Source: Leucoraja ocellata (Eukaryota). From it: 64,000 bases of DNA. The translations under genes and the position numbers were made by a program. Location: contig JAWMAR010000026.1 of the NCBI GenBank assembly GCA_036785375.1, positions 992,001 through 1,056,000 of the forward strand, read 5' to 3'. The notes beneath the pieces were generated by a model. The model was not told where the DNA came from. It ran no database searches and saw only the letters and a list, made by a program, of their open reading frames with translations. How positions within the stretch are numbered: the stretch's first letter is position 1; every line of letters begins with the position of its first letter. Positions 5,631 to 64,000 of this stretch are shown here, piece by piece.

Positions 5631-5749
5631 TTGCGCACGCCCGTCGAGGCGGTGCGTACGGCCTCAATGTGGCTGCGGGCCAGCAGGACGTTGCCGCGCG
5701 GAATTTTTGGAAAGTGTCAGTTTTTCAGAGCCCCGCGTGATGTCGGGAC

Positions 5750-8641
5750 CATAGAAACATAGAAACATAGAAATTAGGTGCAGGAGTAGGCCATTCGGCC
5801 CTTCGAGCCTGCACCGCCATTCAATAGGATCATGGCTGATCATCCAACTCAGTATCCCGTACCTGCCTTCTCTCCATACCCCCTGATCCCCTTAGCCACA
5901 AGGGCCACATCTAACTCCCTCTTAAATATAGCCAATGAACTGGCCTCAACTATCCTCTGTGGCAGAGAGTTCCAGAGATTCATCACTCTCTGTGTGAAAA
6001 AAGTTTTTCTCATCTCGGTTTTGAAGGATTTCCCCCTTATCCTTAAGCTGTGACCCTTTGTCCTGGACTTCCCCAACATCGGGAACAATCTTCCTGCATC
6101 TAGCCTGTCCAACCCCTTAAGAATTTTGTAAGTTTCTATAAGATCCCCTTTCACTCACCTAAATTCTAGAGAGTATAAACCAAGTCTATCCAGTCTTTCT
6201 TCATAAGACAGTCCTGACATCCCAGGAATCAGTCTGGTGAACCTTCTCTGCACTCCCTCTATGGCAATAATGTCCTTCCTCAGATTTGGAGACCAAAACT
6301 GTATGCAATACTCCAGGTGTGGTCTCACCAAGATCCTGTACAACTGCAGTAGAACCTCCCTGCTCCTATACTCAAATCCTTTTGCTATGAAAGCTAACAT
6401 ACCATTCACTTTCTTCACTGCCTGCTACACCTGCATGCTTACTTTCAATGACTGGTGTACCATGACACCCAGGTCTCGCTGCCTCTCCCCTTTTCCTAAT
6501 CGGCCACCATTTAGATCATAGTCTGCTTTCCTGTTTTTGCCACCAAAATGGATAACCTCACATTTATCCACATTATACTGCATCTACCAATCATTTGCCC
6601 ACTCACCCAGCCAATCCAAGTCACCTTGCAGTCTCCTAGCATCCTCCTCACCGCTAACACTGCCTCCCACTTAGCGTCTTCCGCAAGCTTGGAGATATTG
6701 CCTTCAATTCCCTCATCCAGATCATTAATATATATTGTAAATAGCTGGGGTCCCAGCACTGAGCCTTGCGGTACCCCACTAGTCACTGCCCGCCATTGTG
6801 AAAAGGACCCGTTTACTCCTACTCTTTGCTTCCTGTTTGTCAGCCAGTTCTCTATCCACATCAATACTGAACCCCCAATGCCGTGTGCTTTAAGTTTGTA
6901 TACTAATCTCTTATGTGAGACCTTGTTGAAAGCCTTCTGGAAGTCCAGATACACCATATCCACTGGTTCTCCCCTATCCACGCTACTAGTTACATCCTCG
7001 AAAAATTCTATAAGATTCGTCAGACATGATTTACCTTTCGAAAATCCATGCTGATTTTGTCCAATGATTTCACCACTTTCCAAATGTGCTGCTATCCCAT
7101 TTTAATAACTGACTCTAGTTGTTTCTCCACTACCGATGTTAGACTAACTGGTCTGTAATTCCCCGTTTTCTCCCTCCCTCCCTTCTTAAAAAGTGGGGTT
7201 ACGTTTGCTACCCGCCAATTCTCAGGAACTACTCCAGAATCTAAAGAGTTTTGAAAGATTATTACTAATGCATCCACTATTTCTGGAGCTACTTCCTTAA
7301 GTACTCTGGGATGCAGCCTATCTGGCCCTGGGGATTTATCGGCCTTTAATCCATTCAATTTACCCAACACCACTTCCCGACTAACCTGGATTTCACTCAA
7401 TTCCTCCAACTCCTTTGACCCGCGGTCCCCTGCTATTTCCGGCAGATTATTTATGTCTTCCTTAGTGAAGACGGAACCAAAGTAGTTATTCAATCGGTCC
7501 GCCATATCCTTGTTCCCCTTGATCAACTCACCTGTTTCTGACTGCAATGGACCTACATTTGTTTTAACTAATCTCTTTCTTTTCACATATCTATAAAAAC
7601 TTTTGCAGTCAGTTTTTATGTTCCCTGCCAGTTTTCTTTCATAATCATTTTTTCCTTTCCTAATTAAGCCCTTTGTCCTCCTCTGCTGGTCTCTGAATTT
7701 CTCCCAGTCCTCTGGTATGCTGCTTTTTTCTGGCTAATTTGTACGCATCATCCTTCGCTTTGATACTATCCCTGATTTCCCTTGTTATCCACGGATGCAC
7801 TACCTTCCCTGATTTATTCTTTTGCCAAACTGGGATGAACAATTTTTGTAGTTCATCCATGCAGTCTTTAAATGTCTTCCATTGCATATCCACCGTCAAC
7901 CCTTTTAGAATTAATTGCCAGTCAATCTTGGCCAATTCACGTCTCATACCCTCAAAGTTACATTTCTTTAAGTTCAGAACCATTGTTTCTGAATTAACAA
8001 TGTCACTCTCCATCCTAATGAAGAACTCAACCATATTATGGTCACTCTTGCCCAAGGGGGCACATACAACAAGACTGCTAACTAACCCTTCCTCATTACT
8101 CAATACCCAGTCTAAAATAGCCTGCTCTCTCGTTGGTTCCTCTACATGTTGATTTAGATAACTATCCCGCATACATTCCAAGAAATCCTCTTCCTCAGCA
8201 CCCCTGCCAATTTGATTCACCCAATCTATATGTAGATTGAAGTCACCCATTATAACTGTTTTGACTTTGTCGCACGCATTTCTAATTTTCTGTTTGATAC
8301 CATCTCCAACTTCACTACTACTGTTAGGTACCCTGTACACAACACCCACCAGCGTTTTCTGCCCCTTAGTGTTTCGCAACTCTACCCATACCGATTCCAC
8401 ATCCTCCAAACTAATGTCCTTCCTTTCCATTGCATTAATCTCCTCTCTAACCAGCAACGCTACCCCACCTCCTTTTCCTTTCTCTCTATCCCTCCTGAAT
8501 ATTGAATATCCCTGGATGTTCAACTCCCAGCCTTGGTCACCCTGGAGCCATGTCTCCATGATCCCAACTATATCATAATCATTAATGGCTATCTGCACGT
8601 TCAACTCATCCACCTTATTACGAACACTCCTTGCATTGAGA
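5750..8641 (-). mobile_element. 5'-truncated CR1 LINE, ~2.9 kb, young subfamily with (CTATGTTT)n tail
   Basis: catagaaa x3 tail at 5750; complete ORF2-derived sequence; gacca at both junctions (5747-5751 and 8640-8644). Confidence 0.95.
5849..8640 (-). pseudogene. Disrupted CR1 ORF2 (AP endonuclease + reverse transcriptase)
   Basis: EN motifs LNARS, ETW, GVVYR, MGDFN, LDWV, SDH. RT motifs [36 protein letters not shown]. Catalytic FADD has decayed to LAED; the ORF is broken into five pieces by frameshifts. Confidence 0.93.
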
Positions 8642-8879
8642 CCAGCTCCGCACAACTCCATACGGCTCCGGCGATCGAAGTTGGACCGGCCCCACAAGGC
8701 CGTACGGCTCAAGCGACCACGTTAGGTTGCGCTTGCTGCATGTAGTCGCATACTCGTGGGACAGGCCCTTTAGAATTTCATTGTTCTGCTTTTGGTACAT
8801 TTGACAATTAAACACTCCTGAGTCGTGACTCTTGACGATTTGAAAACTACTGTAATTGTCTCCACTTCCATCATCTCGC

Positions 8880-13650: not shown

Positions 13651-14544
13651 TTCTTTTTTCAAAGAACCAAGAAGCTCGCTTCTCAATATTATTAACAGAC
13701 CACACACCAGACCGGCCCAGTGTAGCACAGCATGGGCGTTCAGCATGTGTTCTCAGCAGTGCATGAAGTGCACTGTTGGAGGTGCCCTTATACCCTTTGC
13801 ATGGATGTAGCCAGGCCCCTGAACAGTGTATCTTGTAAACTTGTACATGATGTCATACGGATGGTTTGCGCTGTTCATTCAATCTTGTTTATGTGCGACT
13901 TGAAGGTTGATGGCTGTAACAGATTGTGATGGCAATCTCCAGTGCATACACTGTGTTGCCTGCCAGCTCCGATAATGTCATTCATCCCTGGCGTTGTTCT
14001 GCGATTCGCTTCACATGGCAGCAGTTCATGCTGATGGAATGTGCACCAGAGCTCCCTTGAAAAATATCCCTAAACTCATTGACAGTAAATGCATTACAGA
14101 AATTAACCTTTCCTTTTGGGGAGGGAAAATAAAGATAATTAATTTCACAGTGCATAAATTTAGAGTGAGCTGTGATTTGATTTTGCTGTTCATTTGTGGT
14201 CAAACACAAACAAACACAAATTGGAGGGGTGGAGTTTCCTCTCAGGGGAGTTTAAGGCAGGCTTCATTTTTGGAATTCACATTGTTTTGCTGTGTAAAAT
14301 TGGTACTGTAACAGATTTTGACATCCTTTAAATGGTGATGTCAGGTCCAAATACTTGTACATTTAAATCACTCACTTGAGATCTGTTTTTTGCTGTTTTA
14401 ACAAATGGGATAATGCCCCTGTGAAGAGTAGATGTTTGCTCAATTGAAATAATAGTACCAAGGGTCATTTCCTGGCTGGAGCTTTGAAATGGGGATGAGG
14501 CAACAAGTTTATTGTTATATGTGCAAGTACGCTCTTTAAAACCT

Positions 14545-18200: not shown

Positions 18201-19109
18201 AGTTCAGGGCAGTAGTTACGTGAAGCCCTATCCAATATTGGTTTGGCTGCATCTATTCTGGTTACCTCAAAAAAGATTCTAGGGACTCGTGGTGCAAAAA
18301 AAGCTTCAGTGATTCTGAGGATAGAATGCTTTGGTTACCTTATGAGTCTGGAGAAGCTAGAAGAGATGATTTGGACAAAGTGCTCAGAAGCAAAGATGTG
18401 GACAATGGTAAACTGTAGAATGGACAGAGCATCAAGGAGGAACAAATTGCAATGCAGGGGAAATGGATTGAATGTGTAGGAAGGAACTGCAGATGCTAGT
18501 TTACTTTTTCGAACAAGATGTGGCCATCTCAGCCACTGACAACATTTATAGCCCATCTCTAATGGCTCCTGAACTGAGGTTGTAGCTGAGGGTTATATGA
18601 CTGGAGAAACTAGAGTCAGATAAAGACCAGCCTAGATAAAGAGCGGAGCTTTCCATCAGTGTCGGGGTTGAGTCTTGCAGGGAATATGTAATCATTTAGT
18701 AGCTTCCCACTGCTAATAGTAGCATGTTAACAAATAGATTTATATAATCATTTAAATAATCATTTGAAATAAAATTCCTCTGGTTCTGAATGTCTCTGAA
18801 TCGATATCCAAACCTCTGAATATTAGCTCAATGACTCAAACCATTCTGCCATTATTCTAATTTTTACTTTACTTGTAGTTTATTCAATTCACATATATAT
18901 TACGTATAAGGAGTCATCTTGCTTTTTGGTAATGGTGTGTAAAATAAACAATATGGATCCATCTATTTACATCCGGGTAGATTCTTGCTTCTAGATGTAT
19001 TTACTAACTGGAGTATGCGATTAGTGATGCAATCTCCTTTGCAAAACATCCCAACAAACAGATGGCGCCTCCACATTTGTAACCAAGAAGACCAAAGTGT
19101 TAAGTAAAA

Positions 19110-26680: not shown

Positions 26681-27396
26681 AGGGGAATTTGATTAAGTTA
26701 AAAAATGTTTAGGGTAAAGAATGTTGTGTTACTCTAGCACTTTGTGTTCTACACAAGATTCCAGCATCTGCAGTTCCTTGTGCATAAACTAGAGTAGTGG
26801 TGGGTGTATTGTAGGTGTACTTTGGTGGTTGCAGTCCCTGTTGCTTCCTGGATTGGCTTGCATTGGTGGAATGGCCACTGGTGGAATGCCAGTGATGCCA
26901 CTACCTGGTTATGTTCACACTGCGATGATTGAGGTGGAACTGAACATCGGGAAGGTTGCGGGAAAGGTTAATGGAAAAGAGCAACAAACTGACAAGGTTT
27001 ATCCTTTGAGACATTTCCTAGTGATCATCTGAATCAGGGTCTGACAGAATCATTTGCAGTCTCTTGTTTGGAAATGGTATCTTATCCTGGAGACTGGGAC
27101 ATAGAGTGGAGAAGGAACAACAACCATCAGACGTTTAAAACAAAACAATGCTGCTTTTGTAAGAGGGCAGAAATCTGTCAGTCACCTCAGTGGGGTGGAA
27201 GATTGCAACCTTCACATGGTCCGCCCTGTTTACCCGGCGGTCACAATCAAATAAGATCAAATAGAACAAGTTGTCCTATAACTTTAGGCTGTGCACGCCA
27301 TACGCAAGAAGAAGAAGTCACCTCAGTGTTGGGAATCACAACACTGAACATTGGTTGAGCTAGATTACATTTGATGCACTAACCTGCATTATTTGG

Positions 27397-35360: not shown

Positions 35361-36072
35361 CAAACCCAGTCTTATGATGAAGTTTCATTTTGTTTATGGT
35401 GCTGTTTTCTTTTAAAATTGACCCACCTAAGGTTGTTGCATCGAATGTGTAAAAGATAGGAATATGCTAAATATTGTTGAGAATAACGTGCGGTTTGGAT
35501 TCAGAATCGTCTATTATTAACCGCATTGTGATCAAAAACGTTAATTCGGATTCTTTAAGTTATCAGCTATGAGTTCTCCCTTCCTGCTTGAGAGCAGAGG
35601 AAGGCCCTCAGTTGCCAAACCCTTCTAAGCTAGTGACTTAAAGTGACCTCAGAGTATTGGTGAAATTATGACCACAGTATAATGGTTTAAAAAAAACTAT
35701 AAAGCACTGGATTTGATCGTTCTTGTGCTACATCATCCCCTTCCTGCTTCATGAAAATTTAAACAAGCATTTAAAATAAATAGCTTTGCTTAGTCTCTAT
35801 TCCTTTTGAATGAGATGTGCGAGTAAAATGATAGGGGAGAGTCCTTGAAAGCATTAAATGGGCCATCTTAGCTCAATGGAAAAGAAAATGAACAGTGTTC
35901 CTTTTAGCCATTGTGTCCACAGGGAACTGTTTTTTCTTTAAACAACATTGAGGGCTGCATGCCTTCACAGTGCATTGAGGGATACAGACTACACCACAAA
36001 TAAAAGAATTAATTTGTCTTGTATTGTATTTACCGCTCTTATAGGAGGATTCTGTAAAACTCAAAGCAGATG

Positions 36073-36136: not shown

Positions 36137-36752
36137 CACAATAATTGTGCACCTCAATACATGAGATTTAAGACATATCACAAACTTCCAAAAACAGCGA
36201 GGAACTCCTTCAACTTACTCTCTAATAGCTTGGAAATGTTTGCAATTTTTCAACAGGATAAGCATATTACGAGTTTAAGTGAATTAGCGGGGCAGAGGAT
36301 TGGCTTGGGTATTAGCCGCAAGACATGTTTTGTGGGACAATAACTCTCCTGTCTCTGTATGCTGTCTATATTTTTCACATTTACGAAAAAAAATGTGCAT
36401 TCAAAATAGAGTTACCTCTGTGCAGGCAAAGGACAAAGTATGAAGGCACTGAGTGAATTAGCAGAAAGCTTTGTGATTTTAAGCCAACAGTCATAATTGC
36501 GCCTGATTTCTCTGGAGCATAAATGACATCATGATTCGCGAGTAACACTAGCCCGTGTTCAGACGTGTATGTTTATAGAAAAGCTGGGATCAACCAACAA
36601 AGGAGAAAGATTAAGTGTGGACAACTTCAATCAACCAGTTAGCTGCATCCTTACACAGCATTTTCCTTTGCTCAACCTCAGTTTGCCAGTGGGTTCAAAT
36701 CATCTCACATTCAGCCAGGGGAAGAATCCAACGGCAAACTTAAATAAACTTA

Positions 36753-36936
36753 TGTGTAGGAAAGAACTGCAGATGCTGGTATACACCGAAGATAGACACA
36801 AAATGCTGGAGCAACTCAGCGGGTCAGCCAGCATCTCTGGAGAAAAGAAATAGGAGACGTTTCAGATCCGAAGAAGGGTCTCGACCCGAAATGTCACTTA
36901 TTTCTATTCTCCAGAGATGCTCATTGTCCCACTGAA
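36753..36936. mobile_element. Palindromic Penelope-derived element with 13-bp TSD
   Basis: TSD ttaaataaactta at 36740-36752 and 36937-36949; inverted arms. Confidence 0.85.
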
Positions 36937-37235
36937 TTAAATAAACTTAAGTTGCTCACCATTTATTGTTGCAGTTCTGAGTCTCTGAGAAGGTAATGCC
37001 CTTCACTGACACTGCAGCCCTGCACATCCCAATTTTGGGCACCCCTGCTGGATAAATATGATCATCAACATATATGACAGATTTTCTCAACATTATCTCA
37101 AGTACATTATTTTTGGATGGGAAATCAGTATTGCATGTGCTACCCTTAGAAGCACTTACAGATGCACCATTGGATGCATTCTGTTGGGTTACATCGCAGC
37201 TTAGGTTTAAAATAGCTCTGCCCAAGACCACAATA

Positions 37236-39470: not shown

Positions 39471-39866
39471 CTTATGTGAGCTACGCTGTAGCTTATCCCT
39501 GTTGAAATATTAGTGAGAAATAATAACATATAAAATATGCAGCAACTCAGAAATATAATAATAATATACTGACAAATAAACTTTCCACTTTCCAACAAAG
39601 AAATTGCAGTACTGGGTAAAAGGGAGGTGAGCTACATAGATGTTAATTAATATCATAATGTCATTGATAATTTGGATGTTGACGTTACTAAGCTTGGATT
39701 TTATGCTGAATAAATGTAGCCTTTGTCATTCTTCTGCAATCGCCTCCATCTATCATTGATATTTCCATTCGTCATTCAAAAAGACAGACCTGGAATTAAA
39801 ATACTGGCATAACTCAACGGGTCAGGCAGCATCTCTGAAGAACACGGACATTAGTTTATACTGTAT

Positions 39867-39990
39867 TTACACAGCATTTTCCTTTGCTCCACCTCAGTTT
39901 GCCAGTGGTTCAAATTATCTCACATTCAGCCAGGGGAAGAATCCCCTGGCGCAAACTTAAATAAACGTATGTGTAGGAAAGAAATGCAGA
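39867..39990 (+). repeat. Dispersed copy of 36651-36773 flanked by a 16-bp direct repeat
   Basis: About 90% identical to 36651-36773 by eye; gtttatactgtattta at 39854-39869 and 39995-40010. Confidence 0.92.
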
Positions 39991-41134
39991 CCCTGTTTAT
40001 ACTGTATTTAATATTATTATTCAGACTGGAATAGTGTTGCAGTTTTTAACTTCACAAATATTCATCCAAACATTAATCAATGTTTTAACCATTTTCGCAA
40101 AATCAACTATATTTTACTTGTACCATGCTTTCGAATGCATTTCTACTGGCAACTTTCCAGAGAGGAAGGAAATTACCAGCAAACCATAGGTGTAGTCTTT
40201 GAAGGCTTTTAATTGTTGCGTAATTGATCAGCTGCACATTATCTCTTGAGGAAACACGGACCTCAGAGACTTCAGTAGTTGCTTAACCCACAATATTTTG
40301 AGCAGCAACGTGCAAATGTGTTTTATGTACTGTTAGAACAGACTACAGGACAGTAACATGCTTCTAGGGAGCTTTGCTCTTTCAAAAAAAAAAAAAAAAA
40401 ATAGAGTGCACTTGCCAATGTGATGAATGTTAATGCTAGTAAAAGGCAGAAGATCATCTTTCTTTGCAGGCAGTCCCAGTTGCCAGCCTTCTTTGGTCAG
40501 GTATAACATGGATTAGTTGCAGGGCAAAATTCACATTATGCTGCTCTAATCAAGCATTTTCCTTGTTTTGCCTGTGGAATATTTCAATCCCCTGCATCCG
40601 CTATGCTTGAATGCTGAATTATTGGCAGCTTGATGCTGCAAATTCAAAGCAGGTAATGGGTGAAAGGGCCAAAAGCGGAATGGCAGCAGGTTCGAAAGGA
40701 TTTTAACAGGGCAATGCACACTAAGAAATAACAGTTTGTGAATGCCAAATCTGTCCAATTCATTCTCCTCTCACCCCTAATAGTGAAATTAAGTTCCCCT
40801 TTCCCGGCAGTGATATCTTCTACTGCACCTAACACTGACACGTGGTTCCAGTACAGATTACAGCTCCTCAGTATTGCAGGGATATCCTCTTAGCACTGCA
40901 TCAGTGTCAGATAGCATGTCACTGCATCAGTGTTACATTATTGAGATGCCTGTGGGAGAGAGAGAGTTTAACTGATGAACTAAATTCACTGCTTCGCTGC
41001 TGTGCTGCCTAACATGGGGAGAGAAAATAAAAGAGGCTGATACATCACCTGCTCACTGCCACAAGTGTGGACCATTTTCTCATGTAGCAGGCAGCAAAGG
41101 TTCAGAGATAGAAACAAAGTGTTTTGTTTAAATA

Positions 41135-42528: not shown

Positions 42529-42758
42529 AATCTCTGGAACTCTCTGCCACAGAGGGTAGTTGAGGCCAGTTCATTGGCTATATTTAAGAGGGAGTTAGAT
42601 GTGGCCCTTGTGGCTAAGGGGATCAGGGGGTATGGAGAGAAGGCAGGTACGGGATACTGAGTTGGATGATCAGCCATGATCATATTGAATGGCGGTGCAG
42701 GCTCGAAGGGCCGAATGGCCTACTCCTGCACCTAATTTCTATGTTTCTATGTTTCTAT
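42529..42758 (+). mobile_element. Young CR1 3' end, same subfamily as 5750-8641
   Basis: Near-identical to the reverse complement of 5750-5980; (tttctatg)n tail. Confidence 0.92.
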
Positions 42759-63694: not shown

Positions 63695-64000
63695 AATGCA
63701 AGGAACTGTAGATACTGGTTTACAAAGAAAGACACACAGTGCTTGAGTAACTAATTGGGTTAGGCAGCATTTCTGGAGGAAAAATATAGGTGACGTTTCG
63801 AAGGTAGACAAAATATGCTGGAGAAATTCAGCGGGTGAGGCAGCATCTATGGAGAGAAGGAATGGGCGACGTTTCGGGTCGAGACCCTTCTCCATAGATG
63901 CTGCCTCACCCGCTGAGTTTCTCCAGCATTTTTGTCTACTTTCGATTGTTCCAACATCTGCAGTTCTTTCTTAAACGTGACGTTTCGAGGCGGGACCCTT
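63695..64000. mobile_element. Penelope-derived element with a younger palindromic one (63802-63976) nested inside
   Basis: 12-bp TSD gtgacgtttcga at 63790-63801 and 63977-63988. Confidence 0.85.

Follow-up and report, generated by a model that had tools for sequence, protein, structure and literature searches.

A segment of ~125 bp in the genome of Leucoraja ocellata is a local copy, taken from a donor 3.1 kb away that straddles the end of a Penelope-like element and inserted between direct repeats of 13-16 bp. The window analysed is a stretch of 64,000 nucleotides (contig JAWMAR010000026.1, positions 992,001 to 1,056,000), and all positions below are counted from its first letter. The duplication is real and well beyond chance. 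The donor, the direction of copying, the target-site duplication (TSD), the microhomologies at the two junctions and the conversion of a hairpin within the copy can all be read from the sequence (Table 1). It is probable, though by a modest degree, that the segment arose as a DNA-templated proximal repair duplication at a staggered break, plausibly one cut by a Penelope endonuclease; a single locus fits an RNA or a DNA template. The chance that a Penelope-like protein had some role, as cutter or as copier, is a little better than even.

Table 1. Features of the donor, the source element and the insertion site
Feature	Position	Strand	Basis or remark
Donor: 102 bp of unique flank and 21-26 bp of tail	36651..36778	+	
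TSD of the source element, 13 bp, left copy (the right one at 36937-36949)	36740..36752	.	
Source element, Penelope-like, non-coding, 184 bp; tail on the left, 5' half inverted and with a hammerhead-core-like motif	36753..36936	-	
Donor bases matching the first 10 TSD bases at 7/10 (right-junction microhomology)	36779..36788	+	null P 0.015-0.045
Older, decayed fragment of the Penelope-like family, ending ~3 bp before the insertion site	39798..39851	-	
Left TSD of the insert, 13-16 bp; 3-base overlap (microhomology) of its end with the start of the copied source	39854..39869	.	
Copy of the unique flank, with the left TSD of the source element changed at one base	39870..39969	+	sequence comparison
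Perfect 9-bp inverted repeat with a 4-nt loop, in the copy only	39929..39950	.	z -5.3 vs -2.1; 6 in 64 kb
Copied tip of the element 3' tail; last four bases diverged, leading into the right-TSD microhomology	39970..39994	-	
Right TSD of the insert	39995..40010	.	

The copied segment and its donor

Alignment of the donor (36651-36773) with the copy (39867-39990) within the window gives 115 of 125 identical columns (92%; BLAST E ~1e-43), in agreement with the ~90% given in the original prediction. The differences comprise 7 substitutions, one 1-bp deletion and one 2-bp insertion. The unique 102 bp of the donor occur in two copies in the 64-kb window, with no third. The copy includes the left TSD of the source element (36740-36752) with one base changed, and its tail portion has the same variant base as the source tail; thus, the copy derives from the 36651 locus. 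Because the copy encloses the left TSD of the source element as well as the beginning of the tail, the copying came after the insertion of the element, and the direction from donor to copy is fixed. The earlier reading of a copy that spans the junction of element and flank and is younger than the element is therefore borne out. Inspection of the insert showed no poly(A) or poly(T) tract, also as stated before.

The source element and its family

The source element consists of an inverted, 5'-truncated copy joined to a direct copy, with self-inverted hits at 36813-36938 that are found in other copies as well. Its hammerhead-core-like motif is located at 36868-36892 on the + strand and has one core change. 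The family comprises 37 fragments, or 6.3% of the window, and its copies are built of an inverted half and an optional tail of ~33-37 nt, with tailed and tail-less copies both present. A pattern search for the intact hammerhead core gave five matches in the window, four of them in family loci; an Rfam search returned no hammerhead hit (none at the gathering level, and four chance-level hits at the source). PMC8557442 and PMC4209133 give such an inverted half, optional tail and hammerhead core as features of Penelope-like elements, and by its structure the source behaves like a non-autonomous Penelope-like copy. In the copy at 563-890 the core and the tail share a strand. The source is accordingly a minus-strand element whose 3' end is at 36753, as originally proposed. 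A partner ORF with reverse transcriptase (RT) and GIY-YIG domains is absent among the 271 frames of the window scanned with Pfam, which gave LINE endonuclease and RT only, plus three sub-threshold hits.

The exact TSDs of the family measure 12, 13, 15 and 16 bp, and one copy has a degenerate 19-bp repeat. Long TSDs (score of at least 10, null rate 0.5%) were detected in 5 of the 38 other family rows (37 loci and one merged duplicate row) and in none of the 81 SINE/CR1-type rows, in row sets that overlap partly and whose ends were set by BLAST. The TSD length of the insert thus matches that of the family, for which 12-16 bp had been claimed. The labels CR1/L2-like, RTE-like and SINE for repeats of the window are presumed here. 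The fragments of the Penelope-like family cluster (7 gaps of at most 100 bp vs. 2.2 expected, P 0.004), an excess partly confounded by split elements. Since elements are split and the pair closest in identity is 20 kb apart, the clustering does not demonstrate local re-insertion.

Two other copies show details of the family. At 63790-63988, a Penelope-like copy is nested in another family copy and has a 12-bp TSD. A solo tail of 33 bp at 18472-18504, for which no TSD was found, breaks off almost at the tail position where the copy at 39867 does. The left end of the donor (36625-36660) weakly resembles the element tail in sense orientation (P ~0.05) and is missed by the tail profile. It was rejected as a decayed tail or a tail-pairing stem (P ~0.05-0.07, fold z -1.0 and -1.3).

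The target-site duplication and the junctions

The 16-mer at 39854-39869 is identical to that at 39995-40010, and these are the only two places in the window where it occurs with at most two mismatches (0.05 expected; 0 of 100 shuffles reach 2). A perfect 16-bp TSD had been described. The exact match on both sides stands, but three nucleotides of the left repeat overlap the start of the donor, as the microhomology claimed for this junction requires, so that the TSD is 13-16 bp long. Four extra bases (ccct) noted at the right junction are probably not filler, as the tail profile aligns the copy through 39995. They probably represent diverged element sequence running into a microhomology. Past the tail, the donor continues with five bases and then with the 10-mer 36779-36788, which matches the first 10 bases of the TSD at 7/10. 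Family copies match these 10 bases at up to 9/10, and 8 of 18 motif hits start with the same five bases as the TSD. The right junction is thus probably an imperfect, modest microhomology (null P 0.015-0.045), and it has no donor specificity, as 60 other 10-mers within 5 kb match the start of the TSD about equally well. Together, the 3-nt overlap on the left and the 7/10 match on the right give microhomology at both junctions. A 7-mer on the opposite strand at 36875 could also have templated ccct, but such a match has a chance probability of a few percent and was not relied on.

The target is located ~3 bp from the end of the older, decayed family fragment at 39798-39851; an acceptor touches a family fragment in 6.8% of cases by chance. 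On the donor side, 1.6% of the eligible windows straddle a family tail end, whereas 18% contain some repeat. An 11/12 direct repeat (39785-39796 and 40022-40032) flanks the old fragment together with the entire insertion site. This repeat may be the TSD of the older insertion; alternatively, the element may extend, in decayed form, into the right part of the repeat.

A hairpin perfected in the copy

Six perfect 9-bp inverted repeats occur in the 64 kb. One of them lies in the copy, at 39929-39950, whereas the corresponding inverted repeat of the source (36714-36733) is imperfect and pairs at 6 of 9 positions. Three neighbouring substitutions in this region, each to the complementary base, and the 2-bp insertion alongside account for 5 of the 10 differing columns. 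The remainder, four substitutions and one deletion, corresponds to ~4% divergence. Both substitutions that can be polarised, in the element TSD and in the tail, fall on the side of the copy. We read half of the differences as a single quasi-palindrome template switch that would have perfected the hairpin. Perfection of quasi-palindromes is described as a by-product of break-repair synthesis in yeast (bioRxiv 10.1101/2023.08.09.552703), where, as here, an imperfect inverted repeat is perfected in the new copy and the donor is unaltered. However, the yeast switch is reported from gene conversion and in both orientations, so that it does not fix the direction of synthesis here. Two points weaken the use of the hairpin as support for repair: the 2-bp insertion is not explained by a simple switch, and the switch could be later or the work of a reverse transcriptase.

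Probable duplication by break repair

The repair reading can be laid out in four steps. Judging from the TSD, nicks 13-16 bases apart in the AT-rich stretch 39854-39869 would have left 3' overhangs. One overhang would then have annealed by microhomology to DNA 3.1 kb away, at 36779-36788 or at 36651-36653, and a repair polymerase would have copied ~125 bases from DNA. During this synthesis the nascent strand may have switched template at the imperfect hairpin and made it perfect; the product of the switch is seen in the copy, and its timing is conjectural. Finally, the new strand would have been released, the other end caught via microhomology and the target duplicated by fill-in. The likeliest cutter would be a Penelope-like endonuclease, since TSDs of 12-16 bp in the window come mainly from this family and a fragment of it adjoins the site; the alternative would be an enzyme of the L1/RTE type. 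Cleavage by the family endonuclease would account for both the TSD length and the position of the acceptor at a family fragment. The overlap of the copy with the element tail would be incidental.

On this reading, the insert adds a further example to a class already described. Pace et al. (2009, PMC2671141) report 824 human duplications with donors within 5 kb and a median length of 147 bp. Among 39 examined, poly(A) is given for none and a TSD for six, five of these with microhomology, and the class is also reported from zebrafish and chicken, at a rate that the authors link to L1-made breaks. Row 15 of their Table S1 is a human case of 91 bp with a donor 1.5 kb away, a 13-bp TSD, microhomology at both ends and no poly(A). 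The present insert resembles the class in its size (50-600 bp), its two copies (by the window count), its microhomology, the TSD that some members have and an acceptor in or at a repeat. It differs in a TSD at the long end and in a donor that includes a repeat end, which the published pipeline excludes (PMC2671141). Its donor distance (3.1 kb) lies within the 5 kb, its length (~125 bp) within the 50-619 bp and its ends without poly(A) or poly(T) within the definition of the class, as do its junctions (3 nt on the left; 7/10 on the right, null P 0.015-0.045). To our knowledge, humans have no active Penelope-like elements. In the literature searched, no minimal-hammerhead family is reported from mammals.

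Several observations count against repair. TSDs of 13 bp or more are uncommon in the class (lengths of 4, 5, 10 and 13 bp, that is one of at least 13 bp among four of the six TSD rows of PMC2671141), and the TSD here is at the long end. Neither the straddled tail end (1.6%) nor the acceptor at a family fragment (6.8%) is predicted by repair alone. The right microhomology is modest and, with its 60 similar 10-mers within 5 kb, not donor-specific, and Penelope insertions are themselves described as having junction microhomology.

Possible read-through from the Penelope-like element

The original prediction explained the copy as a 3' transduction by the element. In the form weighed here, which we hold to be possible but doubtful, a minus-strand read-through RNA was taken up by a Penelope-like RT/endonuclease acting in trans, primed 100 nt past the normal start and inserted near its own locus. 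With the same doubt attached, priming would have used the 3-nt match, and copying would have been cut short inside the tail at a microhomology. The insert does join an element 3' end and its own downstream flank within one TSD, the arrangement of a 3' transduction. The orientation of the element is the correct one, the TSD length is that of the family and not that of the SINE/CR1 rows, and the donor straddles the tail end, which is met in only 1.6% of windows by chance. The acceptor abuts a family fragment, in a window where such fragments cluster (7 vs. 2.2, P 0.004, partly from split elements). These features keep the proposed transduction in play, but no sign of an RNA intermediate was found to complete it.

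The marks in question, poly(A) and its signal, are absent from the insert, and the source has no poly(A) signal on the minus strand. Penelope-like inserts need no poly(A), so that this absence counts against the L1 form of transduction only. Base skews are near zero in the window and Pfam found no exon; hence neither a host exon nor a clear strand skew is at hand to supply a minus-strand transcript, although this is absence of evidence only. The minus-strand transcript thus found no backing from poly(A), signal, exon or skew. A plus-strand poly(A) model was rejected: an AATAAA at 36743 precedes the right end by 25-30 nt, yet a tail is missing and the nick motif falls on the opposite side from the one required.

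The proposed reverse transcription from within the flank is at odds with in vitro work on the purified anole enzyme of PAc, a Poseidon-type element (Frangieh et al. 2024, PMC11167929). There, two fixed internal start sites define the tail, initiation is dominant at these sites and proceeds without homology to the cut DNA, and longer RNAs give only a faint product from their 3' end. The faint product, primed from an extended 3' end, is a point for read-through; the fixed internal priming argues against it as a routine event. PAc is like the element here in its tail of 30-40 nt and its hammerhead motif, and like the insertion site in its AT-rich target with both strands cut. It differs in that RT starts at the tail ends without target homology, whereas the insert would start 100 nt beyond with a 3-nt match (PMC11167929). 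Earlier work cited in the same paper describes the tail as needed for DNA recognition by the Drosophila enzyme. A protein that engages the tail at its own locus, cuts nearby AT-rich DNA next to a second copy of the family and primes beyond the fixed start on read-through RNA would produce a one-sided, local, poly(A)-free 3' transduction, a combination that we offer tentatively and consider unlikely.

Penelope elements are known to move host DNA between their repeats. In Adineta vaga (Arkhipova et al. 2013, PMC3846280), as here, host DNA is found with element sequence and a TSD, the enzyme acts in trans and poly(A) is lacking; the cargo there lies between pLTRs and reaches kilobases. In contrast, the cargo here lies outside the element 3' end, with a tail of 21-26 bp and a local landing. 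Captures of host DNA as published in the sources available need flanking pLTRs, which are absent at the source. L1 3' transduction (PMC6431247, PMC5110952) likewise combines an element 3' end, downstream flank, a TSD of ~15 bp and 5' truncation, but the present insert has no poly(A) or signal, is local and involves an element other than L1. No report of a one-sided local Penelope 3' transduction was found in the literature searched, which included few subscription papers, and the available text of PMC9977147 has nothing on transduction.

Landing within 5 kb would occur by chance in ~1 in 100,000 cases or fewer. In a rough estimate with 16 parameter sets, repair is favoured 1- to ~800-fold over a transduction that lands at random (repair at 0.19-0.62 per Mb, a long-TSD share of 1/39-6/39, read-through assumed at 1-10% and a genome assumed at 1-4 Gb). 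Parity is reached if just 1 in 100,000 to 1 in 500 read-through events land locally. High-identity family pairs give no indication of local re-insertion, the closest lying 20 kb apart. Displaced TSDs at the 38 other family rows are not above chance (best score 10, the chance level over 76 tests); this is a weak test, with five rows having a readable TSD. The description of the family as local shufflers of host sequence thus comes down to one event, with no second case among these rows. A masked self-BLAST of the window (36 pairs, 19 within 6 kb) likewise gave no other strong direct pair; the other strong pairs are inverted terminal repeats or belong to a repeat family.

The history of the insert is unusually readable, through its TSD, two microhomologies and a template-switch scar. 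Its value is that of a pointer: long-TSD local copies enriched for tails, if truly present, would indicate a read-through or local mode unpredicted in vitro. If read-through were the true origin, a family with ~37 fragments per 64 kb would drive short local duplications throughout the genome, and part of the class of repair duplications would be tied to retroelement machinery.

Other origins and other features of the window

It is quite unlikely that a LINE enzyme of the L1/RTE type nicked the site and copied an unspliced RNA, or left an RNA-patched break, with the Penelope-like element as a bystander. The bases at 40006-40011 read ATTT/AA, one base off the L1 site 5'-TTTT/A-3', and a cut there would yield a 15-bp TSD; the AT-rich site makes this nick motif weak. 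RNA-derived break patches are on record, but class 1 templated insertions are described as having poly(A), a signal and distant origins, and neither poly(A) nor a signal on the required strand is seen here. The LINE ORFs detected in the window are all CR1/L2-like, and copies of these have no long TSDs (0 of 11 rows). An insert at 27180-27328 indicates another long-TSD element in the genome. This insert of 123 bp is flanked by an exact 13-bp TSD, ends 3' in AAG repeats, is without a second copy in the window and looks like a truncated LINE of another long-TSD family. An assembly artefact, or a low-copy repeat taken for unique DNA, is very improbable, since a mis-assembly would hardly give a copy at 92% identity whose differences are structured, with a clean TSD outside and the source TSD within, and a repeat family would not carry the private flank and TSD of one insertion. 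The target fragment and the body of the source share homology, but on the wrong flank of the copied stretch, and the fragment is similar to an older subfamily; a conversion driven by this homology was therefore rejected.

Unique segments of 148 and 380 bp lie between exact 12-bp direct repeats at 35578-35749 and 13914-14317, respectively. The repeats (35578/35738 and 13914/14306) were rejected as further cases, with no donor in the window and 12-mers near chance. A LINE with endonuclease and RT domains is located at 5747-8721 on the minus strand and is broken into several frames; its 3' 230 bp recur at 42529-42758 with 99.1% identity, indicating a young LINE family. Two inverted-repeat pairs, 41547-41596/42044-42093 and 16997-17066/17780-17846, are 450-700 bp apart, and the first encloses short internal repeats; both are likely the ends of non-autonomous DNA transposons. 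The segments at 1200-1450 and 2280-2900 are GC-rich, contain CpG and include purine-rich tracts of low complexity; they may be promoter-like or repeat-derived.
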